A DNA stretch of 64,000 nucleotides, from the NCBI GenBank assembly GCA_913061415.1, contig CAJXUD010000006.1, positions 63,505-127,504 on the forward strand, given 5' to 3'. Source of the stretch: an uncultured Oleispira sp. Its GTDB lineage: Bacteria > Pseudomonadota > Gammaproteobacteria > Pseudomonadales > Oceanobacteraceae. The position numbers were made by a program, and so were the translations under genes. How positions within the stretch are numbered: position 1 is the first letter of the stretch; every line of letters starts with the position of its first letter. The notes beneath the pieces are model-generated. The model ran no database searches and was not told the DNA's origin. It was given only the letters and a program-made list of their open reading frames with translations. Shown here piece after piece: positions 13,427 to 62,658 of this stretch.

Positions 13427-13464
13427 ATAACTCTTACATGCACATTTTAGAAGAGAGTTACGTT

Positions 13465-14317: not shown

Positions 14318-15115
14318 ATGTCGACTATTGATAATTCAAACCCAGCTTCTTCGGTACTCGATCAATATTCGAATACAGTAAAAAATGCTGATAAGCCTAA
14401 AAGCAATGAGATGGGGCAAGATGAGTTCTTAAAACTGATGATTGCCGAACTCAACAATCAAAACCCTTTAGATCCTCAAGATAATGGCGAATTTATTGCT
14501 CAACTTGCCCAGTTCTCCACGGTAGAAGGGCTGGATAAGTTAAATAATACAACGGAAGGCATGTCGGATGGTATGCGTTCAAGCCAAGCACTGCAGGCTT
14601 CATCTTTAGTGGGGCAGTCGGTCATTGTTGAAGGTAACGACATGGGCTTGCTACTGAATAAAGGCATTGTCAGCAGCTTCAGCGACTTACCAGAATCAGC
14701 CGCTAATTTGACGTTAACCATTGAAGATGAAAATGGTCAGTTGTTGGAACAAATTCCATTAGGCAATCACGAAGCCGGTGAAATGTCGATTCGTTGGGAC
14801 GGACTTAACCTAATGAAAGACGGCGAGATTGTTGATTTAGATTACAGCCAATTGAATCGCCAAGAGTTTTACGTTGATGAAAATGGCGAACAAGTTTTAG
14901 ACGAGGCGGGTAAACCTATTTATGCACCTTACCCTCCTGGTGAATACAGCTTTAAAGTGAGCGGCGGCGTCGGTGGCAAAACAGAAGAGTTTACAACTCT
15001 GATGAGTGCGCGTGTTGATAGTGTCAGCTTAAGCTCAACCGGTTCTGCAACGCTAAATCTTGCCGGTGGCAAGCGTGCAGGAATGGATGAAATCAAACAA
15101 ATTGTTAACGAATAA
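14318..15115 (+). CDS. flgD: Hook capping/assembly protein FlgD
   Basis: QDEFLKLMIAELNNQNPLDP motif and FlgD-type C-terminal beta domain. Confidence 0.9.
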   Translation: MSTIDNSNPASSVLDQYSNTVKNADKPKSNEMGQDEFLKLMIAELNNQNPLDPQDNGEFIAQLAQFSTVEGLDKLNNTTEGMSDGMRSSQALQASSLVGQSVIVEGNDMGLLLNKGIVSSFSDLPESAANLTLTIEDENGQLLEQIPLGNHEAGEMSIRWDGLNLMKDGEIVDLDYSQLNRQEFYVDENGEQVLDEAGKPIYAPYPPGEYSFKVSGGVGGKTEEFTTLMSARVDSVSLSSTGSATLNLAGGKRAGMDEIKQIVNE

Positions 15116-15139: not shown

Positions 15140-18100
15140 ATGAGCTTTAATATTGGTTTAAGTGGTATTCGCGCGGCTTCCACAGATTTGGAAGTAACGG
15201 GTAACAATGTTGCCAACGCAAGCACCACGGGTTTTAAAGAATCCCGTGCAGAATTTGGTGATGTCTATACCAATACATTGCTCGGTACCGGCAGTAAACC
15301 TGTGGGTAGCGGGGTGATGGTTGAAAACGTTCGCCAACAATTCAGCCAAGGTAATATTAGTGGCACCGAAAATGCGCTAGATATGGCCGTTGATGGTAAT
15401 GGTTTTTTTGTTTTAGAAGATCAAGGTGTTGTTTCATATACACGCGCTGGTTTGTTTGGGTTGGATAAAGATGGCTATATTGTTGCCAATAATAATGCCC
15501 GAGTGCAGGGCTTTGCGGCTAATGGCGAGGGTGTTGTTGGTGGTGTGCTAGGAGATCTTCAAATACAAGTAAGCAACCAAGCTCCAGCATTAACCAGTTT
15601 AGTATCAGCGCAGTTGAATCTAGATGCAGGTGAAGATGTACTGCAAGAGCAAGGCTTAGAGTTAATTGCAAGTGGGCTAGCCATTGGTGTGCCAGATTCT
15701 GGCATTATAGAATCAACGGCTTCTACATTAGTTGCTGCAGGGCAACCAACGACAGCGGGTACTCCTGCCATGGTTGACTGGACTATAGGCACTAATACTG
15801 TGGCGGCAATTGGTACAGCCGGTACCGCAGGTGTTGCAGATATTCAATTTGATATTGGTGATGGTAATGGCCTACAAACAGTTAGCGTACCTGCCATTAC
15901 TGCTGGAACACCGGAAGCGGGTGTATTATCGCAAATTCAAACGGCTATTGATGATGTGTTTGGATCTCAGCAGCTTGCGGCGACAACGTCAGCGACGGGC
16001 GAATTGATTATTCAACGTGCAGGCATTAATGCAACGAATGGCACGAGTTTCTCAACCAATGATATCAGCTTCAATGCGGTATTTGGTGCAAACTCTGGTG
16101 CAGTTCCGGGAACCGCTGGTTCGCAATTATTCGTAGGTTCAACGCCAATTAGTGCGGATTTCCGTTCAATTCCGGGTACTTCAACGACGACTCGAACAAC
16201 GGCTACGCCGCCTCTTGCTCTTGTAGCTTCAAGCCCTGGCGCCCCACATGAATTGACAGCGAACAACCCATACAGTGGTGCTGGTCTAGATTTTAGTGGA
16301 GCCAATGAGTTAGCGTTTAGTATCGCAACGGAAGGTGGTGCAACCTATAACATTACATTGGATGCAGCGACGTTTGGCGGTTCGGCCAACGTCGACGTGA
16401 CCTCAATGGCCAACGCTATTAATGCGCAAATTACTGCGATTGCCGGTGCAGGTAACGAAGAAACCCTTGTGGAAGTTCCTGTTGTATCGGGTCGCCTTAG
16501 ATTTCAAGCTCAAGTCGGGCCAGCAGCCAACGGTGATTTTGTTCAGATAGCCGATAATGCTGGGGCTTCATCGGGTCTTAGTTTAACGGATCTAGGTTTC
16601 TTATCGACCAACCGTTTTGACGGTGGTACAGAGCCTGTTCAAGCCAATAATCAGTTTGCTTTAGAAGTAACGAGTTCGAGCGGTAATGGTGCAGGTCCAT
16701 TTGATATTATTATCCCACCTGCAACTTATGCCAGCCTTGATGATGTCGTGAACGCAATACAGGAACAGATTGATGTACGCATCGGAGCAACCGGATTAAG
16801 CGGTAAGGTAACGGTTGATGCAGTGGGCGGACAATTAGTCTTTACCAATAGTATTACTGGGACGGGTGAGGGTATCGCGATAACGGGCACAGTAGCAGAA
16901 CCTTTAGCCGCTGCAGCGCTTGGATTAGATAGTCTATTTGCTGTTGCTGGTCAGGACGAAATTGATAGATCAAACTCCTTTCGTTTAAACTTAACGGTTC
17001 CTGCTCCTGATGAAGAGAATCGCTCAGGCTCAGTGTTAATTTCATTAGACGAAGAATATCGCTCGGTGCAACAATTGGCGACCAGTATTAATCGTCAATT
17101 GAACAGCCAAAACGCGGATGACTATGTTGGAATTAGAGCGCAGGCCGTTGAAGTATTGCCTAATACCGTACCACCAGAATTTACCTTAGAGCTTGTTGCA
17201 GTAGAAGAAGGTGAAGGCTCTATTATTAGTATTTCTAATATTTCAGCTCCGGGCGAAGAAGTGAATACCAATGACTTATTCGCAATATTGCAATCCAATC
17301 CAGCGAATACTAATTTGTTAACAACCGGTATTGAAGGGGTTAATAACCAATATCCAGAGCAGCAAGTAACGCTTATGGATCCTGAAGGAGCTGAAACAGT
17401 ATTAACGATTCCTGAAGGTACAGAAGCAAACGAAGTAGCCAGTATTTTTAATCAGCAGGCGGGTATTACCTCCATTGCGAATACGGTTATGACTGTGCCG
17501 TTATCCAGCTATAACAACCCGGGTAATACCATGACCCTAACGGTTAATGGACAGGCATTAAGCTCGACCAGTTTGCCGGAAATTGCGGATGAAATTAACG
17601 GCTTCCGTGGCACGACGTTACCAGGGTTTTTAGCGTCTATTACTGAAACTGGCGATCTGATCATTACGAACGAAATCGGTCGTGATGTGAAGTTAGAGAT
17701 CAATAGCACCTCGCCAACTGACAGTGTCATGGTATTAGGAGCTGAAAATACCGGTCCTGTTGTATTGGGTGGAACAGTATCCGCGCCAACAGCCGCGGCA
17801 GTAGGCGGTAGCGTTACGTTCACTTTGAATGAAGGTTATTCTTTGGCGAACCCACAGCCAAGTGTATCGGGATTATTTGGTGCGCTATCGGAAGATGAGT
17901 TCACCCCTGTTATTTTGAATGCGTTTGATCCTACTGATCAAGATACTTACAATCATGAAACGTCGTCCGAGATATTTGACAGCTTGGGGAACAGTCACTT
18001 TATGACGCAGTATTTTGTGAAAGAGCCGCTAGATCCTAGTCGTCCAAATGAACAAAATATCTGGGCTATGTATGTACAGGTTGATGGCCAAAATGTTGGA

Positions 18101-18757
18101 GATCCAGATTCCACATTAGATTTCCCTGAGAACCTTGCCCCTTCGCAAGCTCGTTTTGAATTGTTCTTTAATCAAGATGGAACTTTAGATACTCAAGCCA
18201 CTGGAGACATGTATATTTCTAACTGGGATCCAGTGGACGAAAATGGCGATCCTACTGGGGCGGTTAATTCTGTAAACGTTTTAGAAGGGGGGTTGCCGTT
18301 AACAAGCCCTGCAACAAACTCGAACTTTCAAATTGTATTGGACGGCACTACTCAGTTTGGTAGTTCATTCTCGGTCAGTGATGTGAATCAAAACGGTTAT
18401 ACAACAGGGCGTTTAGCGGGCCTACAAGTTGATCAAGAAGGGATGATCTTTGCGCGTTATACTAACGGCCAAGCACAAGCATTAGGCCAAGTTGCGTTAG
18501 CGAATTTCCGTAACCCTGAAGGATTAACACCATTAGGTGGCACCGGTTGGGCGGAATCATTTGAGTCGGGCGTGGGAACGGTTGGCTCGCCAAGAACCGC
18601 ATCGTTCGGTCAGGTGCGAGCGTCGGCATTAGAAGACTCTAACGTCGATATCTCAGAAGAGCTGGTGGGCTTAATCATCGCTCAGCGTAACTTCCAAGCC
18701 AGTGCTAAGACGATTGAAACCATGGACCAAGTGACGCAGACCATTTTGAATATATAA
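15140..18757 (+). CDS. flgE: Flagellar hook protein FlgE, giant form (1205 aa)
   Basis: Canonical N-terminus MSFNIGLSGIRAAS..NNVANASTTGFK and C-terminus LEDSNVDISEELVGLIIAQRNFQASAKTIETMDQV. An insertion of about 750 aa lies between ...AQLNLDAGEDV and FDPTDQDTYNHETS (about nt 15650-17905). Confidence 0.95.
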   Translation: MSFNIGLSGIRAASTDLEVTGNNVANASTTGFKESRAEFGDVYTNTLLGTGSKPVGSGVMVENVRQQFSQGNISGTENALDMAVDGNGFFVLEDQGVVSYTRAGLFGLDKDGYIVANNNARVQGFAANGEGVVGGVLGDLQIQVSNQAPALTSLVSAQLNLDAGEDVLQEQGLELIASGLAIGVPDSGIIESTASTLVAAGQPTTAGTPAMVDWTIGTNTVAAIGTAGTAGVADIQFDIGDGNGLQTVSVPAITAGTPEAGVLSQIQTAIDDVFGSQQLAATTSATGELIIQRAGINATNGTSFSTNDISFNAVFGANSGAVPGTAGSQLFVGSTPISADFRSIPGTSTTTRTTATPPLALVASSPGAPHELTANNPYSGAGLDFSGANELAFSIATEGGATYNITLDAATFGGSANVDVTSMANAINAQITAIAGAGNEETLVEVPVVSGRLRFQAQVGPAANGDFVQIADNAGASSGLSLTDLGFLSTNRFDGGTEPVQANNQFALEVTSSSGNGAGPFDIIIPPATYASLDDVVNAIQEQIDVRIGATGLSGKVTVDAVGGQLVFTNSITGTGEGIAITGTVAEPLAAAALGLDSLFAVAGQDEIDRSNSFRLNLTVPAPDEENRSGSVLISLDEEYRSVQQLATSINRQLNSQNADDYVGIRAQAVEVLPNTVPPEFTLELVAVEEGEGSIISISNISAPGEEVNTNDLFAILQSNPANTNLLTTGIEGVNNQYPEQQVTLMDPEGAETVLTIPEGTEANEVASIFNQQAGITSIANTVMTVPLSSYNNPGNTMTLTVNGQALSSTSLPEIADEINGFRGTTLPGFLASITETGDLIITNEIGRDVKLEINSTSPTDSVMVLGAENTGPVVLGGTVSAPTAAAVGGSVTFTLNEGYSLANPQPSVSGLFGALSEDEFTPVILNAFDPTDQDTYNHETSSEIFDSLGNSHFMTQYFVKEPLDPSRPNEQNIWAMYVQVDGQNVGDPDSTLDFPENLAPSQARFELFFNQDGTLDTQATGDMYISNWDPVDENGDPTGAVNSVNVLEGGLPLTSPATNSNFQIVLDGTTQFGSSFSVSDVNQNGYTTGRLAGLQVDQEGMIFARYTNGQAQALGQVALANFRNPEGLTPLGGTGWAESFESGVGTVGSPRTASFGQVRASALEDSNVDISEELVGLIIAQRNFQASAKTIETMDQVTQTILNI

Positions 18758-23008: not shown

Positions 23009-24064
23009 ATGATTAACAGCCAGATTGCACAGCCACAAGATGTTTATACAGACCTTAATAGTCTGCAAAGCATTAATGCTATTGGTCGCGAAGACAAAGG
23101 CGAAGCTTTGCGTAAAGTGGCTGAGCAGTTTGAATCTATGTTTGTCAAAATGATGATGAAGTCGATGCGTGATGCGAATAAGGTTTTTCAAGAAGATTCG
23201 ATTATGCATTCTCCGCAAGAAGATTTTTATCAACAAATGTATGACGACCAATTATCGGTCAGTTTAACCGGTAAGCAGGGTATGGGATTGGCAGATGTTA
23301 TTTATCGTCAGCTTAATCAAGAATATGGCGATCCTGAGGGACGTAAAGAGGTTCAGTGGCAGCCATTGGATGATCGTCGCAAAAACTTTTCTCATGCGAT
23401 CGACTTTAACCAAATTGAAAAGAAAAATACTCAGCTTAAACCTAAAAAAGAACAAGCGGGTTTTGAAATCGATGCGTCGTTTGTGAATAAAACTGAGCAA
23501 GATACATCCCCTGAAAAGCAAGCTGATAAACTGCAAACGTTTGCCAGCCCCGAGGCGTTTATAGAAACACTTTATCCGGCGGCGCAAAAAGTGGCTAAAG
23601 AAATGGGTGTTAGCCCTCAAGCGATTGTTTCTCAAGCCGCATTAGAAACTGGCTGGGGAAAGTTTGTGATCCATGGTGAAAATAGCCAAGGCGAGCAAGA
23701 AAACAGTTTTAATTTTTTTGGCATTAAGGCTGATAGTCGCTGGAGTGGTGAAAAAGTGAGTGTCACTACTCATGAATATCGAGATGGTCAGCGCGTAACA
23801 GAAAAAGCAGATTTCCGCTCATACCCTAGCATCGAAGCGGGCCTAAAAGATTATGCTGATTTCTTGCAGGCACAGCGTTATGAAAAGGCGATGGCGGCAG
23901 GAACAGATATCGAACAATACGCAAAAGAATTGCAGCAAGCTGGATACGCGACAGACCCTAAATACGCACAAAAAATAACGCGCATCGCCAACAGCGAACT
24001 GATGCAGCAAACTTTAAATACTACGCCATTAGCGCAAAATAGCGAAGAGGTGCCTCGTGGGTGA
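23009..24064 (+). CDS. flgJ: FlgJ: rod-binding domain plus peptidoglycan glucosaminidase
   Basis: N-terminal AEQFESMFVKMMMKSMR and a C-terminal muramidase/glucosaminidase region (AALETGWGK, FFGIKA, AGYATDPKYAQKI). Confidence 0.92.
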   Translation: MINSQIAQPQDVYTDLNSLQSINAIGREDKGEALRKVAEQFESMFVKMMMKSMRDANKVFQEDSIMHSPQEDFYQQMYDDQLSVSLTGKQGMGLADVIYRQLNQEYGDPEGRKEVQWQPLDDRRKNFSHAIDFNQIEKKNTQLKPKKEQAGFEIDASFVNKTEQDTSPEKQADKLQTFASPEAFIETLYPAAQKVAKEMGVSPQAIVSQAALETGWGKFVIHGENSQGEQENSFNFFGIKADSRWSGEKVSVTTHEYRDGQRVTEKADFRSYPSIEAGLKDYADFLQAQRYEKAMAAGTDIEQYAKELQQAGYATDPKYAQKITRIANSELMQQTLNTTPLAQNSEEVPRG

Positions 24065-27035
24065 TTTATTAGGCATAGGTATTTCTGGCTTAAAAGCTCA
24101 GCAAACAGCGCTGAGTGTTACGGGTCATAACATTACTAACGCGGGTACTGAAGGTTATAGCCGCCAGACGGTAAACTTTAATGAAAATACGCCTCAGTTT
24201 AGCGGCGGTGTTTGGACCGGTAATGGCGTTAACGTTGATTCTATTAAGCGCGTTTATGACGAATTCTTAACCGAGCAAATGCAGCGCGACTCATCGGCAT
24301 TTAATGAGAATGAAGTTTTGTCGGTTAACGCTTCACAAATTGACAGTTTATTGGCCGATTCAGGAACTGGCATACAGCCAGGCATCGAAAGAATGTTTGG
24401 CGCTTTGCAATCGGTGGTAGATGATCCTTCGTCACTTCCGGCCCGACAAGTTTTGATCAGTGAAGCCAACGGGCTTAGCGATCGATTTTCTACTATCAGT
24501 GATCGACTGAATGACCAAAGCGAAATTATTAATGGGCAAATGGATGTTATTGCTGGAGAAATTAGCACCATTGGTAATGCGATAGCTGACCTTAACGAAC
24601 AGATTCAATTTGCTTTAGCCGCATCTAATGGCCAACCACCGAATGATATGCTGGATCAGCGTGATCGACTAATAACCCAGCTTTCTGAATTGGTCTCAGT
24701 TGAGGTAACGATCCAAGATGGCAGTGCAATGAATGTCATGATCGGTAATGGGCAATCTTTAGTAATTGGAAATGAATCAAGTGAGCTATTTACCCAGGCT
24801 GGAGATTCTGATTCTTCCAGATTCGGTCTGTATTTCCGTAAAGGTGATACCGTCGTAGACGTCACAGCTGAAATTAAAGGTGGACAGCTGGGTGGAATGC
24901 TACAGTTTCGTGAGGTGGTATTAGAGCCAGCGATTAATGGTTTAGGTCGTCTCGCAGTAAGTATTAACGAAGCATTTAATCAACAACATCAGCTGGGTAT
25001 TGATTACGAAGGCTCAAAAGGCGGTAACTTTTTTGACGACGTAAACTCGCCGAGTAATAGCTATGCGAGGGTACATGGTGATGGCCGCAACAAAGCACCC
25101 AATGATCGCTTAGTTTCAGCGCATATCACCGATAGTTCGAAGTTAACCACCGATAATTATCGATTAGAATTCCCTGGTCCTGGGGAGTATGTGTTTAAAG
25201 TCTATAACGATACCACCGGCCAAGAATTAGAAGCAACTGCGCTAACCGGAGAGCTTCCGCAAACGGTTGAAGTTGATGGCTTTGAAATACGCTTAGAAGC
25301 GGGTACTTTTCAAGCAGGAGATCGTTTTTTAATTACACCAACGCGTGCCGCAGCAGGCAATCTTGATGTGCGCGTGACTCGACCAGAAGAAGTCGCCATT
25401 GCCTCACCGATTTCTACTGACTCGGCCATTGGTAACCGCGGAACAGGGGCTATTTCACAAGGTGCTGTTTACGATATTACAACACCTTATTTGGCCAGCG
25501 AAGGCGAGATGGACCCTCCTTTATTGGTGAAGTTTACGTCAGCCACAAGTTATGACGTATTGGATAACTCAGACCCTGGTAATCCGATACCACTCTTTCC
25601 ACCCTTGATGAATCAACGTTATATTCCGGGTATATCGAATAATATTTTACCACCCGACGAAGGTAAAACCGCCTTCACCAGTTTTGGTGGATATCTACCA
25701 ACAATGCCCACGTATCAGGCACCATCACCAGCGCCTACAGTAACGGCTGTAAATGGTTTTTTCCCTGAACGTATTACCATTAATCGTGAAGATCCTATTA
25801 CAGGGGCGCAAATAGCTCAGCCGCTATTAATCACGCCAGAAAATGCATCGGCGAAAGAAATAGCGCGGCTAATTTCAGAGAGAGATGGGGTGGAAGCAAG
25901 TGCACGAACAACGGTTCAGTTAAGCGACTTCACCCTAGATGCTAATCCATTTATGGATACAAACTTATCTCTAAATGGCATCACGCTCACCGATACCTTG
26001 GCTTTGACGCAAACAAAATATGCCGATGATTATCCTGCAGTTGTGCCCGAGCCTTTAGATGCCAACTTTATAGCCGATCGAATTAATGCCAATTTTGATT
26101 TTCGGGATATGGGAATTGTTGCCAAGAGTGATGGCGAAACTGTAACGATTATTGCGCTAAATGGCGAAGACTTAAGCTTTGAATTAACCGGAGATTTAGG
26201 AGATGGTTTTTCAATATCTAACTCTCAAGACATTCCACTGATTCAAACGGGACAGTCGCCTGTTGTTAACCTAACAGAAATAGATGGTTATGACTTTTCA
26301 ATAGACGGTCCTTATACTTATGAGTTTGAAGGCCCAGATAAAAAAATGTACAGCATAGAGCTGACGGGGAATCATAGTTCAGGGGCCGCTGTCTTAAATG
26401 AAATTCAAAATAAAATTGATAATTCAGGCCTTGTTCACCCAGGTAACTTACAAGTAGATATTGATGAAAAGGGCAGGATTAGTTTTCAAACAAAACTGCC
26501 CGTAACTGCAACAGGGATTAATGGCAGTAGCAAAATTGCCATGGGCGGTGAAATTAAAGTTGTACTTGATGAAGGTCACAGCTTAGAAATAGACCCACCT
26601 GGAAATAATTTATTTGATAGCAACCCCGTAGGTGAGTCTGTTCACTTTGGCTTTGATGTTGAAATAGAAGGGCTGATTCAAAATGGTGACGAATTTACTG
26701 TACAGTTTAATAAAGACGGTACCTCTGATAGCCGCAACGGTGTTGCACTGGGTAACTTGCAAACAAAAAAAATTGTTAATGGAAATACCAGCTTTAGCGG
26801 TGCTTATGCGACGCTGGTAGAAGAAGTGGGTTCTATAACCAGTAGAGCGCGCATAAATAAAGAATCAAGTGAAGTATTGCTGCGTAACTCTAAAGATGCG
26901 GTGAATAGCAGCTCTGGGGTTAACCTAGATGAAGAAGCCGCCGCCTTAATTCAGTATGAACTTGCTTACAATGCTTCTGCCAAAGTGATTCAAGTTGCGC
27001 GTGATATTTTTGATACTTTAATAAATACATTTTAA
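24057..27035 (+). CDS. flgK: Hook-filament junction protein FlgK (HAP1), enlarged (992 aa)
   Basis: GTG start overlaps the flgJ end. N-terminus LLGIGISGLKAQQTALSVTGHNITNAGTEGYSRQ and C-terminus GVNLDEEAAALIQYELAYNASAKVIQVARDIFDTLI. Confidence 0.93.
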   Translation: MGDLLGIGISGLKAQQTALSVTGHNITNAGTEGYSRQTVNFNENTPQFSGGVWTGNGVNVDSIKRVYDEFLTEQMQRDSSAFNENEVLSVNASQIDSLLADSGTGIQPGIERMFGALQSVVDDPSSLPARQVLISEANGLSDRFSTISDRLNDQSEIINGQMDVIAGEISTIGNAIADLNEQIQFALAASNGQPPNDMLDQRDRLITQLSELVSVEVTIQDGSAMNVMIGNGQSLVIGNESSELFTQAGDSDSSRFGLYFRKGDTVVDVTAEIKGGQLGGMLQFREVVLEPAINGLGRLAVSINEAFNQQHQLGIDYEGSKGGNFFDDVNSPSNSYARVHGDGRNKAPNDRLVSAHITDSSKLTTDNYRLEFPGPGEYVFKVYNDTTGQELEATALTGELPQTVEVDGFEIRLEAGTFQAGDRFLITPTRAAAGNLDVRVTRPEEVAIASPISTDSAIGNRGTGAISQGAVYDITTPYLASEGEMDPPLLVKFTSATSYDVLDNSDPGNPIPLFPPLMNQRYIPGISNNILPPDEGKTAFTSFGGYLPTMPTYQAPSPAPTVTAVNGFFPERITINREDPITGAQIAQPLLITPENASAKEIARLISERDGVEASARTTVQLSDFTLDANPFMDTNLSLNGITLTDTLALTQTKYADDYPAVVPEPLDANFIADRINANFDFRDMGIVAKSDGETVTIIALNGEDLSFELTGDLGDGFSISNSQDIPLIQTGQSPVVNLTEIDGYDFSIDGPYTYEFEGPDKKMYSIELTGNHSSGAAVLNEIQNKIDNSGLVHPGNLQVDIDEKGRISFQTKLPVTATGINGSSKIAMGGEIKVVLDEGHSLEIDPPGNNLFDSNPVGESVHFGFDVEIEGLIQNGDEFTVQFNKDGTSDSRNGVALGNLQTKKIVNGNTSFSGAYATLVEEVGSITSRARINKESSEVLLRNSKDAVNSSSGVNLDEEAAALIQYELAYNASAKVIQVARDIFDTLINTF

Positions 27036-28749: not shown

Positions 28750-31212
28750 ATGCCACAAATTATAAATACCAACATTGCCTCGTTGAACGCACAGCGTAAC
28801 TTGGACAAATCACAGTCTTCAAACCAGCAAGCGTTACAACGCTTATCATCAGGTCTTCGCATTAACAGTGCAAAAGACGATGCAGCAGGTATGGCGATTT
28901 CTACACGCTTCACCTCTCAGATTAAAGGTCTGAACGTAGCAGTACGTAACGCAGGTGATGGTATCGCACTAGCACAAACCGCAGAAGGCGCATTGGGCTC
29001 AATGAATGAAAGCTTACAGCGTATTCGTGAGCTAGCCGTACAGTCTTCTAACGCAACCAACTCAGATGTTGACCGCGATGCACTTCAAGCAGAAGTAAGT
29101 CAGTTGGTTTCTGAGATCACGAGAACGTCTGAAGAAACTGATTTTAATGGTCGTAAGTTACTTGATGGTTCTTTCACGGCAAGCTTCCAAGTTGGTGCAA
29201 ATGCTGGCCAAACTATTGATGTTTCGATTGCTGAACTAACATCTGAGAAGTTGGGTTCTGATTCTCAGGCGGGTGTTTCTTCGCAGGGTAATAGTTCTAA
29301 GCTTGGAAATGGTGATCTTGTCATTAATGGTGAGAATATTCGAGCTTCTGTTTCTGGTGATGATCAATTATCGTTTTCTGGAAAAGAATACTCGGCTATT
29401 GCAAAGGTTGCGGCAATTAATGATTCTAGTGAGAAGACTGGCGTGACTGCAACAGTTGATGAAAACGTTGTTCTTGGTGCTGATATGTCAGATCAAGCTG
29501 CGATTACTCCAGATACAGCAACGATCACCTTGAATGGTGTTGATATAGCCTTGCAGAGCACCGCTAACTCCTCTGATGCCGATAAAGCAGCGACCCGTGG
29601 CTCCGTAATCCAAGCAATCAATGCTAAAGCCGAACAAACTGGCGTAATGGCTTCTGATGGTGGTAATGATGGTGGTGTTATTTTAACTGCTGCAGATGGT
29701 CGAAATGTTACATTAACATCTGACTCTGGTACGGATGATGTCAATGATTTAACAATTTTTGGATTGTCGGATTCAAATACAGCAGGTACTGCTGCCGTGC
29801 AGTCTCAAGCAGGCTTTACGCTAACTGCTGAAAATGCGAATACCAGTATTAACATCACTGGTGGTGATGATACAGGCAATGGTAATCTAGCGAATTCAGG
29901 CTTAGCGGCCGGTAATTATTCAGCTCAGACTGCTTTTACAAGCTCTACTAAGCAAGAAGTTGGTGGCGCAGATGCCGCAGCAACTACCATTAATTCTACA
30001 GCAGCTACGGCAGCCTTAGCAGTAACTCAAGCAGCGGCTTCTGGCGTAACAATTGCGCTTCCGGGTGCAGACACACTGGTTGCTATTCAAGCTGAATTTG
30101 ATGCAGCTGGATATGATGTAACGGTAGGAGCACTAACACAAGAGGGTGTGGCAGTTGCTTCTGGTGAAGCAAAAGCTTCTGAAAAACGCTTGGCGGATGG
30201 TGATTTAGTTATTAATGATGTTGTGATCAAAGCATCAAGTACTTTGGATGATACGGCATCCGATACCAGTGCGGCATCATCAGATGCAGCTGCTTCAGGT
30301 ATTTCCATTGCAGCCGCAATTAATAAGGCTTCTGATTCAACGGGTGTTACCGCTGAAGTTAATGCAACAGAGGTTGTAGGCGGCGCTAATGCTCGATCTG
30401 GGGCTGTAGGGCTGACGTTTGGTGCAACGGCTGGTGCGGTTGCTGCTGGGGATAGCATTACATTAACGGTGAATGGCGTAGATATTAGCCTTACAGAAAC
30501 TGCAGATTATGAGAAGAATAAGGCTGCCGCTATCACTGCGTTTAATGAAGTTTCTGGTCAAACGGGTATTGTTGCTACAGACAACGGACAATCACTTACC
30601 TTAACCGCTGCAGATGGTCGAAATATATCATTGTTTGCTGATGGTGGTGCTGGTGAGGCTATGACTGACTTAGGCACAAGTATAGAAAACTTTGGTCTTA
30701 ATGCATCAAACGTTGGCCAGAATACTGGGGCGACAGGTGTGAAAGCATATACTAACGCAAGTGGTGCTGAAACAACCTATTCAACGGTTTCCTTAACTTC
30801 TGCTTCAGCATTTGAAGTAAGCTTTGGTACTGGTGGGGCCGAGGGCCTATCAGATTCAGGCTTGGTTGCAGGTAAATTTGGTGGTGGTGAAGATGGTCAA
30901 GCCTTGGTTGATGTGGACATCTCAACAGTAGCTGGTGCTCAAGAAGCCTTGGTTGCCATTGATAATGCCATTGGCCAGGTAGCGAGCCAGCGAGCTGACT
31001 TAGGTGCGATCCAAAACCGTATGGAATCAACAGTTAGTAACTTGCAGATTTCGTCTGAAAATTTGAACGCGGCTAACTCGCGAATTCAAGATGCCGATTT
31101 CGCAGCAGAGACAGCAGAACTGCAACGTACTAACGTGTTACAGCAGGCAGGTATTTCAGTTCTAGCGCAAGCTAACGCATCAGGCCAGCAGGTTCTATCT
31201 CTTCTAGGATAA
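28750..31212 (+). CDS. fliC: Flagellin, large form (820 aa) with an internally duplicated variable region
   Basis: N-terminus [18 protein letters not shown]...[16 protein letters not shown] and C-terminus [33 protein letters not shown]. The central region contains two paralogous modules of about 150 aa. Confidence 0.95.
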
Positions 31213-31858: not shown

Positions 31859-34800
31859 ATGGCTGCTATTGAATCATTAGGGTTAGGCTCAGGGGTTTTA
31901 ACCAATGACTTGGTCGATAAGATTGTCGGGGCCGAGCGTGAAGCGGCGGATAAGCGCTTTGAACGTGAAGAAACGATTATCGATGCTCGCATTACTGCCT
32001 ATGGTGAAATTAAATCTCTATCGTCTACCCTACAAGTTGCTACCAGCGCACTTTCTTTACCGTCCACGTCGGGTTCAACCACAGCGTCGTCTTCTGATGA
32101 AGCTATTTTAACAACTGAAGCGTCTATTTTAGCCGAGCCAGGCACTTACAGTGTAGAGGTGTTAAATACCGCAAAAGCACACAGTGTGGTTACCGATGCG
32201 TACAGCAGTATTGATGAAATAATTGGTACGGGTGAAATTCAAATTACCTTTGGTGAAATTACTTATGATGGTACGGGTGGCTTTTTAAGTCAGGATGTTG
32301 ATCCTGCTAAAGGCGGCTCACCCATTGTGATTGACGATTCGAATAAAACATTGAGTGGTATTCGAGAAGCAATCAATAATGCGGACATTGGGGCAAAAGC
32401 ATCGATCATTAATGATGGTTCTGGTTATCGCTTAGTAATCACCTCTGAAGAAACCGGTGAAAATAATGCCATGCGCATTATGACCAAGGATGACTTGGGC
32501 GGCACAGCAACATCGGGATTGTCTTCTATTGCTTATAACGAAGTTCAAACCGGTGCTGGCACTATGTCAGAAACGGCAAAAGGTGAAGATGCATTATTGA
32601 AAGCCAATGGTCTCACCATCACTCGTGAATCAAATAGTATTCAAGAAGTTGTTCCTGGGGTGACATTAAATTTATTATCAGCCGACGTCGGTAAACCTAT
32701 TTCAATTGTAGTTGCTCCCGATACGGCAGGTATTCAAGAAAAAATTCAGGATTTTGTTAATGCTTATAATGAATTCAAAAAATTCTCTGATGACTTAACC
32801 TCGTACAATTCAGAAAGTGATCAGGCAGGTTTGTTATTAGGTGATTCGACAATTCGAGGGATTCAATCGCAAGTACGCTCTATGATCAGTCAACCAATCG
32901 CCGGTTTATCAGGTACTAAATACCGCTCATTAACCGAGCTGGGCGTGAATACAGATAAAAATAATGATTACCTTTTAGAGTTTGATCCGGCTGTTTTTGC
33001 AAAGGCGATACGAGAAGAACGTGATACCGTCGTTAGCATTATGTCTAAAAGTGGTGAAGCTACCGATTCACAAATTCGTTATGTGAATGACTCAATTAAT
33101 ACGCAGCCAGGCACGTATGGTATAGAAGTTACTCAACTTGCCACTCAGGCTACTTATTCGGGAGGCAGTGTTACGGGTTTAGATTTTTCTAGCCCTGTTA
33201 TGATTGATGGTAGTAACAATAATTTTAGTATTAATATCAATGGTACAACTGCTGCGATTGAATTAATTCAAGGGAGTTATGCTACGGGTGAAGAATTAGC
33301 CAAGCAAATCAGTTTTCAAATAAACAGTAATGATGCATTTAAAAGTCTTTCTTATGCGGTATCGACTAGCTATAGCGCTACCGATAAAAACTTTTCAATA
33401 ACGTCAAATAAATACGGCGCCGAATCACAAGTTTCTTTTACCAGTACCGATTCAAATACTGCCAATACTTTAGGGTTTAATACCACGGGTAAAGGTGCAT
33501 TTGATGCCGTTGCTTTAACAACACTGAACAGTGATGCATTTTTAGGAAAAGGTTCTACTACTCAGCCGGGTTCACGCACGGTTTTAGAAAGTAATGGTAT
33601 TAATTTTGCCACGAACAATGCGTCATTTTCTTTGGATATTGGTGGTGGTCCTGTTGCCGTTACGGTGAACTTGAATGCGGCGGGTAATGATCTAAACGGT
33701 GATAGTGATATTGGTAACCGTAAAGATACTCTACAGGCGATTCAAACCGCTATTGATGCAACTGCTTTGAACGGCGCTGTCATTGCCGACTTTGATGATA
33801 ATGGGTATTTAACCTTTACGACATCGGCTTTGGGTAGCAGTGAACAGATTGAAATTACCAGTGTCGGTAGCACAAGCAGTGATACGGCATTGGGTTTAAA
33901 AGCGGATCAGGGCGTACAAACCAATGGTGATGATCCTGGTTTAACGTTTGCATCGGCCACTGAGTTTAATATGGCTGTCGATGGTATTAGCACAACGACA
34001 AAGGTCAGCGTGCCATCGGGTACTTATTTAAGCGGTGCTGACTTAGCCACAGCGATTGAGTTGGCGATGGATACTGCTTTGGCGGCAGATCCTGCGTTTG
34101 TCGGATTAACCAAAGGTGGCGTGAGTAATATTGGAACACGCGATATTAGTGCTCCTATCGATTTCTCTACCAGTAATTCTGGATTTATGCTGAATGTGTC
34201 GGGTGTCGAAAAAGAAATTATTGTTAATGGTAATGACCCCGATAATATTGTGAATATTCAAGCGGCGTTAGATACCGCCTATGGCGCTGGAATTGTTTCC
34301 GCAAGTTTGGATGGTTCGGGTGTTAAGTTGTCGTCGGTAACGACGGGTCATAATGAATACATTGAAATTACGGCTGATGGGCGGGGTGCTATTAGTGATA
34401 CCAGTTCTGCCGTGACCAATATCACAACCGGTATTGATTTTAGTGGTGTGGGTGATAATGCAACTTTTACTTTAGCGGTTGATGGCGTTGATATTAACGT
34501 TGATGTGAACGGCGATGGTACTGCAGGTACGAATGATGCTGCATCCACGTTGAATATTGTGCAAAGTGCTGTTGATACGGCCTTGGTAGGCAGTGGGCAG
34601 TTCTCTGAAGGCGATGTGGTTGCCAAACTAGATGGTAGCGGTAATTTATATTTTGAAACGCTGGCTAAAAATGGCGTTAAAACGGCTGCAACTTATGGCT
34701 CGGGTGCGAGCATTGAAGTTAAAAATATCGATGCAAATGCTTCGGCTGACTTAGGCTTAGCTGCCAGTACCGTTTCTAATGGTTACGATACTTTTGGTTT

Positions 34801-35818
34801 CGATGAAACCCGACGTTACGGTTATGATTTAGAGGCTGATGTTGAATACAAGTACGATCCAGTCACCGATTTGGGTTCGTTTAAAATCAATGTTGGTGGC
34901 AATGCTACCGAAGTCTCTTTTAGTGATATTGATGCCGCCGCCATCTCGCTAATCGGGCTGCAGGATGTCAGTATTTATACGCCAACCGTCGCACAAGGAA
35001 AGAACATTGAAGGCAAAATTAATGGCGTTGAGGCTAAAGGCAATGGCCAATATTTGTCAGCAACAGATGGTAATAAAAAAGCCAGTAATGGGTATTACAT
35101 TGCAAATTCCGCGGCTGATTTTACCGCTGGAGTTAATTTAGACGCAACCAATAATAGCTTTACAATTGAAGTTGATGGTGTCGAAAGAACGATTAGTCTG
35201 GCTCAGCCAAGTTCTTATAACTCGGGTGCTGGCTTAGCCGCCGCGTTACAGAAAGCGATTAATGACGATGTCACATTTAAAGCAGATGGTATTGAAGTTA
35301 AGGTCGAATATGACGATGACCCTGCGTCTTTTTCTTATCAAAAATTCGGCATTATTTCAGGCTCTACGGGGGCGTCCTCATCGGTTAAAATGGTGGACGT
35401 ACCTGGGCCAACTTCTGCAATCTTTGGTTTTATCAACGGACAAGCGGATGGCCAGACGGGTAAAGCCCAAGAAGGTCAGATTGATCCATCAAGTGGTGTG
35501 CGCTTAAAAATTACTGGAGGCGCGTTAGGGGATCGTGGCTCTGTTACTTATATTTCGGGCTTTGCTGATCAATTAAATGCTAGTTTGTTATCGCTGCTCG
35601 ATAATAAGACGGGTTTAATTACCACAAAACAAAATGCGTTAGATAATGATAAAGTGCAATTAGAAGAGGAGAGAGAGCGACTTGATACGCGAATGTCTGC
35701 ACAAGAAGCGCGTCTTAAGAGTCAGTTTTTATATAATGATGCGATCGTATCAAAGTTAAATTCAACGTCTGATTTTATAACCCAGCAGTTTGAGGCAATG
35801 AATAACTCTAAGAAGTAA
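31859..35818 (+). CDS. fliD: Filament cap protein FliD (HAP2), giant form (1319 aa)
   Basis: N-terminus MAAIESLGLGSGVLTNDLVDKIV...ITAYGEIKS and C-terminus ...LDTRMSAQEARLKSQFLYNDAIVSKLNSTSDFITQQF. The central part carries at least 7 repeat modules. Confidence 0.93.
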   Translation: MAAIESLGLGSGVLTNDLVDKIVGAEREAADKRFEREETIIDARITAYGEIKSLSSTLQVATSALSLPSTSGSTTASSSDEAILTTEASILAEPGTYSVEVLNTAKAHSVVTDAYSSIDEIIGTGEIQITFGEITYDGTGGFLSQDVDPAKGGSPIVIDDSNKTLSGIREAINNADIGAKASIINDGSGYRLVITSEETGENNAMRIMTKDDLGGTATSGLSSIAYNEVQTGAGTMSETAKGEDALLKANGLTITRESNSIQEVVPGVTLNLLSADVGKPISIVVAPDTAGIQEKIQDFVNAYNEFKKFSDDLTSYNSESDQAGLLLGDSTIRGIQSQVRSMISQPIAGLSGTKYRSLTELGVNTDKNNDYLLEFDPAVFAKAIREERDTVVSIMSKSGEATDSQIRYVNDSINTQPGTYGIEVTQLATQATYSGGSVTGLDFSSPVMIDGSNNNFSININGTTAAIELIQGSYATGEELAKQISFQINSNDAFKSLSYAVSTSYSATDKNFSITSNKYGAESQVSFTSTDSNTANTLGFNTTGKGAFDAVALTTLNSDAFLGKGSTTQPGSRTVLESNGINFATNNASFSLDIGGGPVAVTVNLNAAGNDLNGDSDIGNRKDTLQAIQTAIDATALNGAVIADFDDNGYLTFTTSALGSSEQIEITSVGSTSSDTALGLKADQGVQTNGDDPGLTFASATEFNMAVDGISTTTKVSVPSGTYLSGADLATAIELAMDTALAADPAFVGLTKGGVSNIGTRDISAPIDFSTSNSGFMLNVSGVEKEIIVNGNDPDNIVNIQAALDTAYGAGIVSASLDGSGVKLSSVTTGHNEYIEITADGRGAISDTSSAVTNITTGIDFSGVGDNATFTLAVDGVDINVDVNGDGTAGTNDAASTLNIVQSAVDTALVGSGQFSEGDVVAKLDGSGNLYFETLAKNGVKTAATYGSGASIEVKNIDANASADLGLAASTVSNGYDTFGFDETRRYGYDLEADVEYKYDPVTDLGSFKINVGGNATEVSFSDIDAAAISLIGLQDVSIYTPTVAQGKNIEGKINGVEAKGNGQYLSATDGNKKASNGYYIANSAADFTAGVNLDATNNSFTIEVDGVERTISLAQPSSYNSGAGLAAALQKAINDDVTFKADGIEVKVEYDDDPASFSYQKFGIISGSTGASSSVKMVDVPGPTSAIFGFINGQADGQTGKAQEGQIDPSSGVRLKITGGALGDRGSVTYISGFADQLNASLLSLLDNKTGLITTKQNALDNDKVQLEEERERLDTRMSAQEARLKSQFLYNDAIVSKLNSTSDFITQQFEAMNNSKK

Positions 35819-43652: not shown

Positions 43653-43746
43653 AAAAGGAAAGATAGATGGCAAAAGTGCCAAAAAAATATAGATGAAGTT
43701 GATTCAAAAGCGTCAACTTCACCAATAAAAGGTCGAGGTGTTGGTT

Positions 43747-61378: not shown

Positions 61379-61407
61379 CTCACTAAGTATGATTAATGGG
61401 AGCACCT

Positions 61408-62658
61408 ATGGAAACTCAATCGACACAACATGGCTTAATGCAAATATTCTCAGCCGGAGTGGCTGCTGATCCTAAGTTATCTGGAATAGAGGGTCTTGGA
61501 GAGCAAGGTTTCTCCAGTGTACTTTCAGGTTTGTTGCCAGATAAGGCAGGACAGTCCATGCCTTTAGAGGATGAAGGTTTGCCGCACCTAGGCCAAGCTT
61601 TGCCGCTTGAAGCGCTCGCTTCAAATTCATTGTTAATTAATACCAGCGTTTCGAATACAGACGCTTCTAATTCGGACACCTCACTTCTGTTGAACCCTAT
61701 TGCAGAGGGGGAGAGCGTTACAGAAGCATCTACAGAAAACGAAACGCCTTCAAATTTGCTTGAGCAGCAAGGCTTTTATGCACAATCATTAGTGTCTAGT
61801 TTAATCGATCAGAAAACCGTGTCTTCTCAGGCTAATACTTTGAGCGCAGTGGCTGTTGCCACAGAATCCTCTAAATCCCCTTCTGTCATGGCACAGCACT
61901 TAAACCAGAATACGACCCCCGACATTATGACGGCGAGCGACCTAGAGGATGAAGGTGAATTAAATGAACGTTTTCTTGGTTCGGAGTCTACGTCAACTTC
62001 AGCAACTTCTAAAAAATCAACTCTCGAACTCATGACGACACCGCAAGCCCCTGTCGCATTGAAGACTTTAACCTCTGCTGAAGCAAATATTAATCTTGCA
62101 TTGGCTTTGAACGAAGACCCTACGAGTCAATCTTTAGATGAGTTGATTGATGGTGAGATGATAGAAAAGGGCGAACTTGAAGCGAAATCAAATTCATTAG
62201 AACGCAAACAAGATGACCAAACTCTTAAATTAAGTAAAGGGCAACAAGCATGGGGTGATGCATTAACAGAGCGCATCACAATGAACGCCGCTAAAGATAT
62301 TAAGCAAGTGACCATTCATTTAGACCCCCCGGAGTTGGGGAGTCTTGAGTTGAAGTTACACATTAAAGATGATCAGCAAACACAGGTTCATGTGCAAGTG
62401 CAGAATCATCAAGTAAAAGAGGCGCTTGAAAGTAGCGCGCATCGACTGCGCGATATGCTAGCGGGTCAGGGATTAGAGCTTTCTGAGTTTGATGTGCAGG
62501 CCGATACTGGGCGAGGAGATCAGTCAGCGTTTGATTCTGACTCGCAGCAAGGTAAGGAACAATCACCGGATTCTGACACTTTTCAGCAAGAGGGAGAAGA
62601 AATCAGTGTCGATATAGCAAAAGCAAAAAATAATAATATATTAGATACCTTTGTTTAA
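61408..62658 (+). CDS. fliK: Hook-length control protein FliK
   Basis: Low-complexity S/T/Q/E-rich N-terminal ruler region and a C-terminal FliK domain (VTIHLDPPELGSLELKLHIKDDQQTQVHVQVQNHQVKEALESSAHRLRDMLAGQGLEL). Start chosen at 61408 (GGGAG RBS); the ORF track starts at 61396. Confidence 0.88.
   Translation: METQSTQHGLMQIFSAGVAADPKLSGIEGLGEQGFSSVLSGLLPDKAGQSMPLEDEGLPHLGQALPLEALASNSLLINTSVSNTDASNSDTSLLLNPIAEGESVTEASTENETPSNLLEQQGFYAQSLVSSLIDQKTVSSQANTLSAVAVATESSKSPSVMAQHLNQNTTPDIMTASDLEDEGELNERFLGSESTSTSATSKKSTLELMTTPQAPVALKTLTSAEANINLALALNEDPTSQSLDELIDGEMIEKGELEAKSNSLERKQDDQTLKLSKGQQAWGDALTERITMNAAKDIKQVTIHLDPPELGSLELKLHIKDDQQTQVHVQVQNHQVKEALESSAHRLRDMLAGQGLELSEFDVQADTGRGDQSAFDSDSQQGKEQSPDSDTFQQEGEEISVDIAKAKNNNILDTFV

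Follow-up and report, generated by a model that had tools for sequence, protein, structure and literature searches.

How large can the subunit of a flagellar hook become, and what might its additional residues do for the hook? The question is raised by a locus in a 64,000-nucleotide stretch of DNA from an uncultured Oleispira sp. (the window), in which flgE, encoding a giant hook protein, occupies 15140..18757 (+). The gene is one open frame, stop-free throughout in the list of open reading frames, and specifies a protein of 1205 aa (124 kDa, pI 4.05). Normal hook proteins have 402-437 aa, and the earlier note on this DNA was right to call the frame uninterrupted and the product about three times the textbook size.

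The protein is the flagellar hook protein FlgE, as judged by its D0, D1 and D2 domains and by its slot in the operon. Pfam recognizes Flg_bb_rod (PF00460) at aa 4-33 (29.6 bits, cut-off 20.7), the FlgE/F/G D1 domain (PF22692) at aa 83-148, FlgE_D2 (PF07559) at aa 920-1087 (E 1e-32) and Flg_bbr_C (PF06429) at aa 1162-1205 (51.8 bits, cut-off 23), and the top sequence matches in the PDB are FlgE chains (E 8e-61 to 1e-52). The gene order in the window is flgB, flgC, flgD (14318-15115), flgE, flgF (18992-19744), flgG, flgH, flgI, flgJ, flgK, flgL. Oleispira antarctica RB-8 has the same operon order and a 1185-aa FlgE orthologue, and five further loci likewise carry an enlarged flgE in the flgD-flgE-flgF slot. 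A megablast search of the window against plasmids gave no match.

Where do the extra residues enter the protein? In phmmer searches against the PDB, aa 1-166 align with residues 1-163 of Salmonella FlgE and 4-171 of a Vibrio-type FlgE, and aa 928-1205 align with Salmonella 169-402 and Vibrio-type 177-436. Because the flanks that align to normal FlgE stop at aa 166 and resume at aa 928, the insert can be placed at aa ~167-927 (nt 15641-17920, ~760 aa), where it stands in place of about 5 residues of normal hooks; the span of about 750 aa at 15650-17905 given earlier was therefore close to the mark. The N-terminal part of the core, aa 1-167 (15140..15640, +), comprises D0, Dc, the N-terminal segment of D1 and the first strand of D2, as seen in the alignments to Salmonella and Vibrio-type FlgE. 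The C-terminal part, aa 928-1205 with the stop codon (17921..18757, +), comprises the rest of D2, the C-terminal segment of D1 and the D0 helix, according to the Salmonella alignment and Pfam. With aa 166 equivalent to Salmonella residue 163 and aa 928 to residue 169, the insertion site corresponds to Salmonella T167/P168. We take D2 of Salmonella FlgE to begin at residue ~145, so that the insertion falls inside D2, after its first strand, and not at the D1 boundary proposed in the earlier note. The same T167/P168 site has been used to graft D3-D4 of Campylobacter jejuni FlgE into the Salmonella hook, with functional hooks as the outcome, and the D3 domain of Caulobacter FlgE occupies the same site in D2 (PMC5069557).

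By sequence, the insert resembles little that is catalogued. Pfam finds nothing significant between aa ~175 and 920 of the whole protein and no match in five separate pieces of the insert, the nearest family being DUF5766 at 19 bits, under its cut-off. The insert alone has 0 matches at E<=10 among PDB sequences, and a profile of the FlgE family finds no non-FlgE match there. As previously noted, the insert is rich in A, G, T, S and V (50% together) and lacks Cys, as does the entire FlgE protein; its surface is strongly acidic and poor in Lys.

Structure prediction by AlphaFold2 is more informative. Two monomer models were made, the second covering only aa 168-735, that is, the insert without its last unit. 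In these models the insert folds into four tandem beta-beta-alpha-beta-beta modules (A-D) followed by a bilobal unit of ~190 aa (E/F), with pLDDT of 80-98 overall (module D and E/F are partly lower) and pTM of 0.32 and 0.48; the inter-domain geometry is undefined. The border alignment and the structure prediction, both put forward in the earlier note as checks, thus delimit the insert and resolve it into folded modules. The proposed module starts at nt 15836, 16304, 16645, 16973, 17370 and 17525 (aa 233, 389, 503, 612, 744 and 796) each coincide with a first beta-strand, but the last two mark the lobes of one bilobal domain.

The insert begins with a conserved linker, aa 168-206 (15641..15757, +; LQEQGLELIASGLAIGVPDSGIIESTASTLVAAGQPTTA), which is disordered in the monomer models (pLDDT <50 in both) and yet about 70% identical across homologues; an HMM of this linker matches distant members of the family. 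Module A (aa ~207-332; 15758..16135, +) is predicted with pLDDT of 89-98 and is followed by a conserved Thr-rich linker, aa 333-356 (16136..16207, +; ..FRSIPGTSTTTRTTATPP..), with pLDDT <50 and 82% identity in the bin of aa 331-360. Since these 'disordered' linkers rank among the best conserved segments, they may make specific contacts in the assembly. Module B (aa ~357-497; 16208..16630, +; pLDDT 86-96) has one further strand (beta-beta-alpha-beta-beta-beta) and the motif 'AINAQI' in its helix. Module C (aa ~498-606; 16631..16957, +; pLDDT 85-96) has the same predicted fold as its neighbors, and so does module D (aa ~607-735; 16958..17344, +) at lower confidence (pLDDT 66-80, with a low-confidence tail at aa 703-735). 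Profile-profile comparison detects internal repeats among A-D at probabilities of 67-94%: for module A, hhalign pairs 240-291 with 515-568 (93.8%); for module B, 403-489 with 521-598 (78%); and for module D, 504-578 with 612-693 (67%) and 482-549 with 591-664 (91%). These repeats are visible by profile methods only, and a BLASTP self-comparison of the five axial proteins of the window showed none.

What kind of domains are these? When A-D alone were searched with Foldseek, the matches included FliD D2-D3 from five species at probabilities of 0.9-0.99 (5fhy, 5h5t, 5h5v, 5xlj, 9m6i), led by 5fhy_A (E 3e-4, probability 0.99), and over 15 other FliD entries followed at 0.7-0.99. TM scores were 0.2-0.4 and the rmsd high, as is to be expected when alignments span several domains. 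Modules A-D are accordingly modeled as having the fold of FliD head domains, of the 'flagellin IN-motif' type. The Pfam family for that motif (PF07196, Flagellin hook IN motif) has no match at E<=10 in the window FlgE or its five pieces; two sister hooks of 1330 aa (P0242 and P0258) do match it, at 28.4 bits (cut-off 22.7), and the matched position is also found weakly by HMMs of module D (7.8 bits, E 9e-4) and module B (4.3 bits).

The E/F block (aa 736-927; 17345..17920, +; pLDDT 77-91) is predicted to contain 15 strands, 13 of them at least 5 residues long, and 2 helices. With the full FlgE model as query, the best Foldseek match is 8erm, D2/D3 of Pseudomonas aeruginosa PAO1 FliC (E 1.5e-7, probability 1.00, TM(target) 0.64, 189 columns of 199 residues, 23% identity), followed by Helicobacter pylori FlaA and FlaB and the PAO1 filament. 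Because the 8erm match vanishes when only aa 168-735 is searched, the flagellin-like fold is assigned to E/F; by elimination, then, this block appears to resemble the outer domains of Pseudomonas/Helicobacter-type flagellins. The two lobes (from aa 744 and 796) show no profile similarity to the A-D repeat in hhalign. Sequence comparison is silent on the flagellin connection: phmmer and hmmsearch runs of the insert and the family profile against the PDB returned no flagellins, and the outer region of the window FliC, used as a query for the PAO1 D2/D3 sequence, gave no usable match.

The window encodes the other axial proteins as well, and most of these are also large. The hook-filament junction protein FlgK (24057..27035, +; Pfam) is enlarged to 992 aa, the flagellin FliC (28750..31212, +; Pfam Flagellin_N and Flagellin_C) has 820 aa, and the giant filament cap protein FliD (31859..35818, +; Pfam and module-C HMM) has 1319 aa, with units like module C. 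FliK, the hook-length ruler (61396..62658, +), is ordinary in length at 420 aa, in line with the earlier count of about 417, and is identified by a weak NCBIfam match to the FliK C-terminal family (E 9e-6). The sole BLASTP match among the five axial proteins of the window is a weak one between FlgE 731-810, the start of E/F, and FlgK 562-647 (E 3e-4). An HMM of this E-start segment scores 15.4 bits on the window FlgK, and the module-C HMM scores 16.9 bits on the window FliD, with matches at 452-541, 626-681 and 1096-1152; 0 of 1000 shuffles reach either score. Two copies of module C are also found in P0168, a FlgL/flagellin-like protein (E 2e-14 and 8e-16). HMMs run against the window FliC and against shuffles found no similarity between FliC and the FlgE insert, the E/F HMMs scoring no better on FliC than on shuffles. 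The kinship with FliD and FliC suggested in the earlier note thus holds at the level of predicted fold for both; at the level of sequence it extends to FliD and FlgK and fails for FliC. Because FliD-type and flagellin-type outer domains appear to sit together in a hook protein, these results suggest that axial-protein genes exchange modules.

Is the insert maintained by selection? The 115 homologues compared have a near-constant length of ~1185-1260 aa at 60-80% identity (the Thalassolituus FlgE, for example, has 1209 aa). Mean identity to the window FlgE per 30-aa bin runs from 94% to 69% in the N-terminal core and from 44 to 87% in the insert. Purifying selection acts on the insert, for which dN/dS is 0.085, as against 0.046 in the C-terminal core. 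Beyond these close relatives, the enlarged-hook family of marine Gammaproteobacteria grades in length from 654 to 1613 aa; the number of modules differs between lineages, and the E/F block is common to every member, down to that of 654 aa. The best explanation is that E/F was the ancestral addition and that the tandem modules accumulated N-terminal to it. A non-flagellar FG-GAP protein (P0130), which shares, over 76% of its length, 67% identity with the insert of a 1580-aa FlgE, was considered as a sign of a generic surface module and given little weight, being a singleton and either a fusion or a chimera of a metagenome-assembled genome. Literature searches found no paper on hooks of more than 1000 aa and none describing the hooks of this family.

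The sizes of the axial proteins were compared in three loci from a scan of a genome collection for FlgK and in six extra loci fetched singly. FlgK is enlarged (876-1146 aa) in all five family loci that include it (O. antarctica, L002, L005, L006 and L008), and flagellin is enlarged (690-1140 aa) in each of the three FlgK-bearing family loci that reach it. The lengths of FlgE and FlgK do not co-vary monotonically (820/1057, 939/876, 1205/992 and 1603/1146 aa), and near-identical strains that share a 1205-aa FlgE have FliC proteins of 820 to 1140 aa. Any matching of diameter between hook and filament is therefore loose at best.

How might such a protein build a working hook? We think it likely that this is a functional Oleispira hook subunit with added outer layers, which make for a thicker and stiffer hook. 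The D0-D1-D2 core would build the normal tube of 11 protofilaments, with the ~760 additional residues carried in a surface loop of D2, at the site used in Campylobacter and Caulobacter. Lying outside D2, the domains of the insert would raise the hook diameter from ~18 nm to ~31-33 nm, and the added contacts between subunits would stiffen the single polar hook, passing on torque without buckling. As a scaling estimate, the masses of the window proteins give a hook of 31-33 nm and a filament of ~30 nm, and the extra domains probably widen the hook to roughly the thickness of the giant filaments published for this clade. The widened hook would also match the junction protein FlgK and the cap protein FliD, which are equally enlarged. 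The monomer models leave the inter-domain geometry undefined, and we infer ordered layers that raise thickness or stiffness from the Campylobacter analogy and the mass scaling; where the domains lie on the hook, how wide it is and what mechanical role they play are inferred as well.

A joint about 32 nm thick, of normal length and yet bending every turn, poses a mechanical puzzle. In a hook 55 nm long and 32 nm in diameter that is bent by 90 degrees, the surface would undergo an axial strain of about +/-46% every turn; this argues that the outer domains must slide or pack loosely, which could limit stiffening. A bolder form of the argument, which we hold only tentatively and think rather improbable, is that a continuous outer jacket of protein, about 30-35 nm wide, runs the full length of the external flagellum and that the hook acts within it as a universal joint of a new kind. 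All four parts, from hook and junction to filament and cap, would draw modules from one shared pool, swapped between the axial-protein genes, while the six outer lobes and the conserved 'disordered' linkers would slide or re-pair with each revolution and so absorb a surface strain of about +/-45%.

Perhaps the extra domains serve mainly at the surface instead, as a flexible, beads-on-a-string brush around a hook of normal build, acting in adhesion to oil droplets or particles, in carrying glycans, or as a shield against flagellotropic phages or grazers. Low-confidence linkers do separate A, B-C, D and E/F, pTM is low, and the bending strain favors loose packing. Lineages differ in module number, and the insert combines a very acidic surface, poor in Lys, with one Thr-rich linker. 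Outer domains of flagellin and FliD are surface-exposed and often adhesive or antigenic, and Oleispira and Thalassolituus, among the cultured hosts, are hydrocarbon degraders. It is difficult, however, to reconcile a brush with the low dN/dS and near-constant length of the hook protein, which are unlike those of diversifying surface antigens; FliC of the same strains is, by contrast, hypervariable. The linkers called disordered are strongly conserved, and a hook ~55 nm long offers a tiny adhesive surface beside the filament. We regard a mainly surface role as unlikely.

If the giant product were not what ends up in the hook, either intein-like or proteolytic processing would have to remove the insert, or flgE would have to be a non-structural paralogue here. 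Campylobacter and Helicobacter each have a second flgE-like gene, but in Campylobacter the larger of the two proteins forms the hook (PMC5069557), and the gene considered here sits in the canonical flgD-flgE-flgF slot across loci. An intein or other self-processing insert was rejected: Pfam finds no Hint/intein or protease domain, the protein lacks Cys, and the insert is made of domains of flagellar type, with predicted folds of flagellar outer domains. With FlgK and FliD enlarged in parallel, we consider processing or paralogy very improbable. The source organism is known from metagenome-assembled genomes only, and a more trivial explanation would be a contig chimera or a sequencing error that joined two genes. 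This has a negligible chance of being correct and is effectively refuted: the identical 1205-aa protein and cluster mates of at least 90% identity (41 sequences) occur on dozens of separate contigs from NCBI, JGI, ENA, Logan and Tara, and more than 115 full-length homologues are known, closed genomes of cultured species among them.

If the preferred reading of a functional, thickened hook is correct, the hook lattice tolerates 3-4 times the canonical subunit mass, given that cultured species encode relatives as long as 1613 aa. Among the organisms concerned, O. antarctica, Thalassolituus, Natronospirillum and Marinicellulosiphila are available in culture and tractable.

The closest functional parallel is the hook of C. 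jejuni (FlgE of 851-865 aa; 5jxl, 5az4), a polar flagellate whose outer domains D3/D4 sit at the same D2 loop, widen the hook and are needed for robust motility. The Campylobacter hook measures 28 nm against 18 nm in Salmonella, and deletion of D3-D4 leaves cells poorly motile (PMC5097172); the 865-aa Campylobacter protein has been treated as among the longest hook proteins (PMC5069557). The insert described here is about twice as long (~760 versus ~386 aa), has 5 units with 6 lobes versus 2 domains, and is predicted to have flagellin- and FliD-like folds. Homology to the epsilonproteobacterial D3/D4, which the earlier note named as a refuting condition, gained no support from sequence or from the top-ranking structural matches. 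The family profile matches 5jxl and 5az4 in the core alone (profile positions 939-1204). Neither entry is among the 50 Foldseek matches listed for the full model, even by virtue of the shared core, or among those listed for A-D; the only Campylobacter entry among the 50 is 9gsx_W, at probability 0.15. The matches listed thus hold no positive structural evidence for similarity to D3/D4. In Caulobacter crescentus, D3 of FlgE (5ay6) is one domain of ~145 aa with a fold unrelated to that predicted for the window insert; a weak Foldseek match (probability 0.63) may come from the shared D2.

The closest parallels in domain content come from the filament and its cap. Modules A-D find their best match by fold in the FliD head domains D2-D3, and module C also by sequence in the window FliD. 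D2/D3 of PAO1 FliC (8erm, 8sug) has a topology like that modeled for E/F, with ~13 strands, 2 helices and a long central strand, although it belongs to a flagellin and E/F to a hook, and the two lack significant sequence similarity. The outer domains of PAO1 flagellin contact neighboring subunits, and motility in viscous media depends on them. Within the same clade as the window hook, Thomson et al. (2018, PMC6248924) described giant flagellins of Oceanospirillales (Bermanella, Oleibacter/Thalassolituus and Oleispira) with DE and DX regions, and filaments of at least 30 nm in Bermanella and Oleibacter (=Thalassolituus). That work dealt with FliC only, reported no DE matches outside flagellins and left open whether other flagellar components are enlarged; at the genomic level, hook, junction and cap are. 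The giant flagellins and the hook share the same stepwise accretion or duplication of outer domains, and the DE-containing flagellins named by Thomson et al., those of Pseudomonas and Helicobacter, are the top structural matches of the E/F block of the hook.

The hook gene flgE (window 15140-18757, plus strand) is a single reading frame of 1205 aa (computed 124 kDa, pI 4.05), uninterrupted as the earlier note had claimed. It lies in a canonical operon with the order flgB, flgC, flgD, flgE, flgF, flgG, flgH, flgI, flgJ, flgK, flgL, in which flgB is found at 13438-13866, flgD at 14318-15115 and flgF at 18992-19744. Pfam recognizes the core (Flg_bb_rod at aa 4-33, D1 at 83-148, FlgE_D2 at 920-1087 and Flg_bbr_C at 1162-1205), with no significant domain at aa ~175-920. 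When the protein was compared with all PDB chains by phmmer, aa 1-166 aligned to Salmonella FlgE 1-163 and Vibrio-type FlgE 4-171, and aa 928-1205 to Salmonella 169-402 and Vibrio-type 177-436; therefore, ~760 residues (aa 167-927; nt 15641-17920) stand in place of ~5. The insertion point is equivalent to Salmonella T167/P168, the position of Campylobacter D3-D4 and Caulobacter D3, and the site at which Yoon et al. grafted the C. jejuni D3-D4 into Salmonella FlgE (PMC5069557). The coordinates first proposed for the insert thus hold, but the site is a loop after the first D2 strand and not the D1/D2 boundary. The composition is also as described, with A, G, T, S and V at 50% and no Cys. Lys accounts for 2 of the 760 residues (0.3%), Asp plus Glu number 80 against 17 Lys plus Arg, and Cys is absent from all five axial proteins, whose pI values lie at 4.0-4.7.

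Could such a gene be an assembly artefact? This is excluded by its recurrence on independent contigs and by an orthologue in a cultured strain. The 1205-aa protein and its cluster mates of at least 90% identity (41 sequences) are found on many contigs from NCBI, JGI, ENA, Logan and Tara, annotated 'MAG: Oleispira sp.', and cultured Oleispira antarctica RB-8 carries a 1185-aa FlgE in the same operon.

Indels in the insert are few across 115 full-length homologues with overall identities of 60-81%, and its identity to the query, taken in bins of 30 aa, is 44-87%. BLAST found no internal repeats in FlgE; profile-profile comparison of 90-aa sub-alignments of the insert paired aa 240-291 with 515-568 (93.8%), 482-549 with 591-664 (91%), 403-489 with 521-598 (78%) and 504-578 with 612-693 (67%). 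An AlphaFold2 model of aa 6-1205 has a mean pLDDT of 64.9; its insert domains reach 80-94, whereas its D0/D1 core is poor, a result to be expected when a monomer is modelled. Another model, limited to aa 168-735, averages 78.6. The models predict four tandem modules, A (aa ~207-332), B (~357-497), C (~498-606) and D (~607-702), each beta-beta-alpha-beta-beta(-beta), and a bilobal, beta-rich E/F unit (aa 736-927) built of two helices and 15 strands, of which 13 span five or more residues and one is long and central. The six module starts proposed in the earlier note fall on the first strand of A, B, C, D and each E/F lobe. Two linkers, aa 168-206 (window 15641-15757) and 333-356 (window 16136-16207; FRSIPGTSTTTRTTATPP), are predicted to be disordered in the monomer (pLDDT below 50), yet few stretches of the insert are better conserved; one, GTSTTTRTTATPP, is rich in Thr. 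They may act as contact strands between subunits or as sites of glycosylation.

What are the relatives of these modules? The insert alone matched no PDB sequence even at E<=10, a profile of the 115-sequence family retrieved from the PDB only FlgE, FlgG and FlgF cores plus one marginal FlgC match (E 0.06), and Pfam scans of five sub-pieces of the insert were empty. In a Foldseek search of the PDB with the full model, flagellin outer domains ranked first, above FlgE cores. The top match was D2/D3 of P. aeruginosa PAO1 FliC (8erm; E 1.5e-7, TM 0.64, 189/199 residues, 23% identity), and the other leading matches were the H. pylori FlaA and FlaB filaments and the PAO1 filament, with FliD lower down (E 2e-3). 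Because the flagellin matches vanish with the aa 168-735 model, which holds only A-D, the flagellin-like bilobal unit would, indirectly and by elimination, be E/F; its strand and helix count is consistent with the published description of PAO1 D2/D3 (PMC10256154). The A-D model instead led to FliD D2-D3 head domains of Pseudomonas, Salmonella, E. coli and Serratia (probability 0.9-0.99, TM only 0.2-0.4). The Campylobacter FlgE entries 5jxl and 5az4 were absent from the 50 Foldseek matches listed, which is weak negative evidence, since not even the core common to these hooks retrieved them; the firmer evidence is that of the sequence searches, in which the insert showed no likeness to Campylobacter D3-D4.

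Sharing of modules among the axial proteins can also be seen with HMMs. The module-C HMM scored 16.9 bits on the window FliD (maximum of 1000 shuffles, 11.4), in which several units match this profile, and the E/F-start HMM scored 15.4 bits on a short stretch of FlgK (shuffle maximum 7.5). The insert HMMs gave nothing on the window FliC. Of the kinship with FliD and FliC modules proposed earlier, the FliD half is therefore supported, by HMM and by Foldseek, and the FliC half is not supported by sequence, though the E/F fold would be flagellin-like. A FlgL/flagellin-like protein from the database searches, P0168, has two module-C copies (E 2e-14 and 8e-16). In sister hooks of 1330 aa, PF07196 ('Flagellin hook IN motif') scores above its Pfam cut-off, and the HMMs of modules D and B match weakly at that position (7.8 and 4.3 bits, respectively); Pfam found no PF07196 in the window FlgE, whole or in insert pieces.

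An exhaustive phmmer search of 1.84 billion representative proteins with the insert returned only 61 clusters at E<=1e-3. Nearly all full-length matches are hook proteins in which both the N-terminal and the C-terminal core is intact, and the remainder are mostly short fragments. Lengths are graded: 654, 757-820, 926-940, 1030-1060, 1180-1260, 1307-1336, 1461-1478 and 1573-1613 aa. Hooks of ~1190-1215 aa occur in Oleispira, Thalassolituus, Bacterioplanoides, Venatoribacter and Parathalassolituus, of 817-820 aa in Marinagarivorans and Simiduia, of ~1330 aa in Ca. Azotimanducaceae and Ca. Pelagadaptatus, of 1573 aa in Natronospirillum operosum and of 1613 aa in Marinicellulosiphila megalodicopiae. 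The hooks of these last two species (P0333 and P0334) are larger than that of the window, as is P0319 (locus L008, 2913-7724), a metagenomic 1603-aa protein paired with a 1146-aa FlgK. Since E/F is common to every full-length member mapped while the number of N-terminal modules differs, E/F is the ancestral outer domain, and later growth was by tandem accretion and nested insertion. The 654-aa member has little beyond E/F in its outer part. In P0162, P0255 and P0319 (1330-1603 aa), counterparts of aa 736-870 and 871-927 are parted by 400-550 extra residues, a nested insertion in the ancestral domain besides the tandem N-terminal modules. One singleton, P0130 (MAG Saccharospirillaceae, MCJ8313519.1; 1481 aa), has an N-terminal FG-GAP repeat and no hook core; its aa ~290-1300 resemble the hook insert, and the insert of a 1580-aa FlgE matches it over 76% of the P0130 length at 67% identity. 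Either a gene fusion has carried the outer array of the hook over to another surface protein, or P0130 is a MAG chimera.

The external axial proteins of the window are all enlarged but FlgL (412 aa): FlgK (24057-27035) has 992 aa, FliC (28750-31212) 820 and FliD (31859-35818) 1319. FlgD (265 aa) is ordinary, as is FliK, which had been put at about 417 aa and is a 420-aa ORF at 61396-62658. Related loci show the same pattern of large FlgE, FlgK and FliC: 992-aa FlgK and 877-aa FliC in O. antarctica RB-8; 1205, 992 and 1140 aa in L002; and 939, 876 and 690 aa in L006. FliC lies outside the locus in Simiduia (L005; FlgE 820, FlgK 1057 aa) and in L008. The L002 strain is 96% identical to the window in FlgK and 93% in FliD, but the termini of its flagellin (L002 14701-18123) share only 59-62% identity with those of the window FliC, and the central parts cannot be aligned; therefore, nearly identical genomes differ by a swap of the flagellin outer region, with FlgE kept at 1205 aa.

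Several neighbouring genes deserve mention. A 696-aa TPR and SAM-methyltransferase ORF (36013-38103, minus strand) lies between fliD and fliS, and a 684-aa protein with a similar domain set adjoins flgL in the 1603-aa hook locus (L008 17447-17724); alike by domain set alone, they may be flagellar protein-modifying enzymes. Within the flagellar region, chemotaxis genes cluster between fliI and fliK (50978-56312) and encode CheA, a protein with a CheW domain and an MCP with PAS and HAMP domains; further ORFs follow up to 58869. The listed start of the FliE ORF (43738-44361; 207 aa, GTG) is probably too far upstream, because the match is confined to the last 70 residues. FliH (47170-48345) is unusually long at 391 aa.

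How might such an insert serve the hook? Most likely, it would form extra outer layers that bring the hook into line with the thick junction and filament and give a single polar hook, normal in length, more stiffness. Hook width is 28 nm in Campylobacter and 18 nm in Salmonella; the Campylobacter D3-D4 domains add inter-subunit contacts, and their deletion cripples motility (PMC5097172). Scaling subunit volume at packing fractions of 0.49 and 0.43 (Campylobacter and Salmonella hooks) gives estimates of ~31-33 nm for the window hook and, by the same scaling, ~30 nm for its FliC filament. A role mainly at the surface, with the insert as a flexible brush for adhesion, glycan display or shielding, seems to us less probable: the insert is of constant length and under strong purifying selection (dN/dS against L002 0.085; C-terminal core, 0.046), unlike the hypervariable FliC of the same strains. 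It is also unlikely that the insert is processed away or that FlgE is a non-structural paralogue, given the canonical operon position, the lack of Cys and the lack of any intein signature in Pfam scans of the protein and insert pieces.

Bending poses a genuine problem for outer layers that stiffen the hook. With a 55-nm hook bent 90 degrees, surface axial strain per turn is about +/-46% at a width of 32 nm and +/-26% at 18 nm; at the larger strain, the outer domains would have to slide or re-pair, and one can speculate that the conserved 'disordered' linkers are candidates for enabling this.

Enlarged hooks with outer domains at the T167/P168-equivalent site were already known; our literature searches found no account of these giant hooks. 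What is new is the scale, at 3-4 times the canonical size and well past a hook termed 'one of the longest' (PMC5069557), the FliD- and flagellin-type origin of the domains, and the graded family in marine Gammaproteobacteria. Thomson et al. (PMC6248924) reported that the filaments of Bermanella and Oleibacter marinus (present-day Thalassolituus maritimus) are at least 30 nm thick and explicitly asked if other flagellar components are correspondingly large. Their 'DE region' of giant flagellins, found in no non-flagellin protein, was named also in Pseudomonas and Helicobacter flagellins, the very ones that head the FlgE Foldseek list, and the stepwise growth of the hook resembles that described for the giant flagellins themselves.
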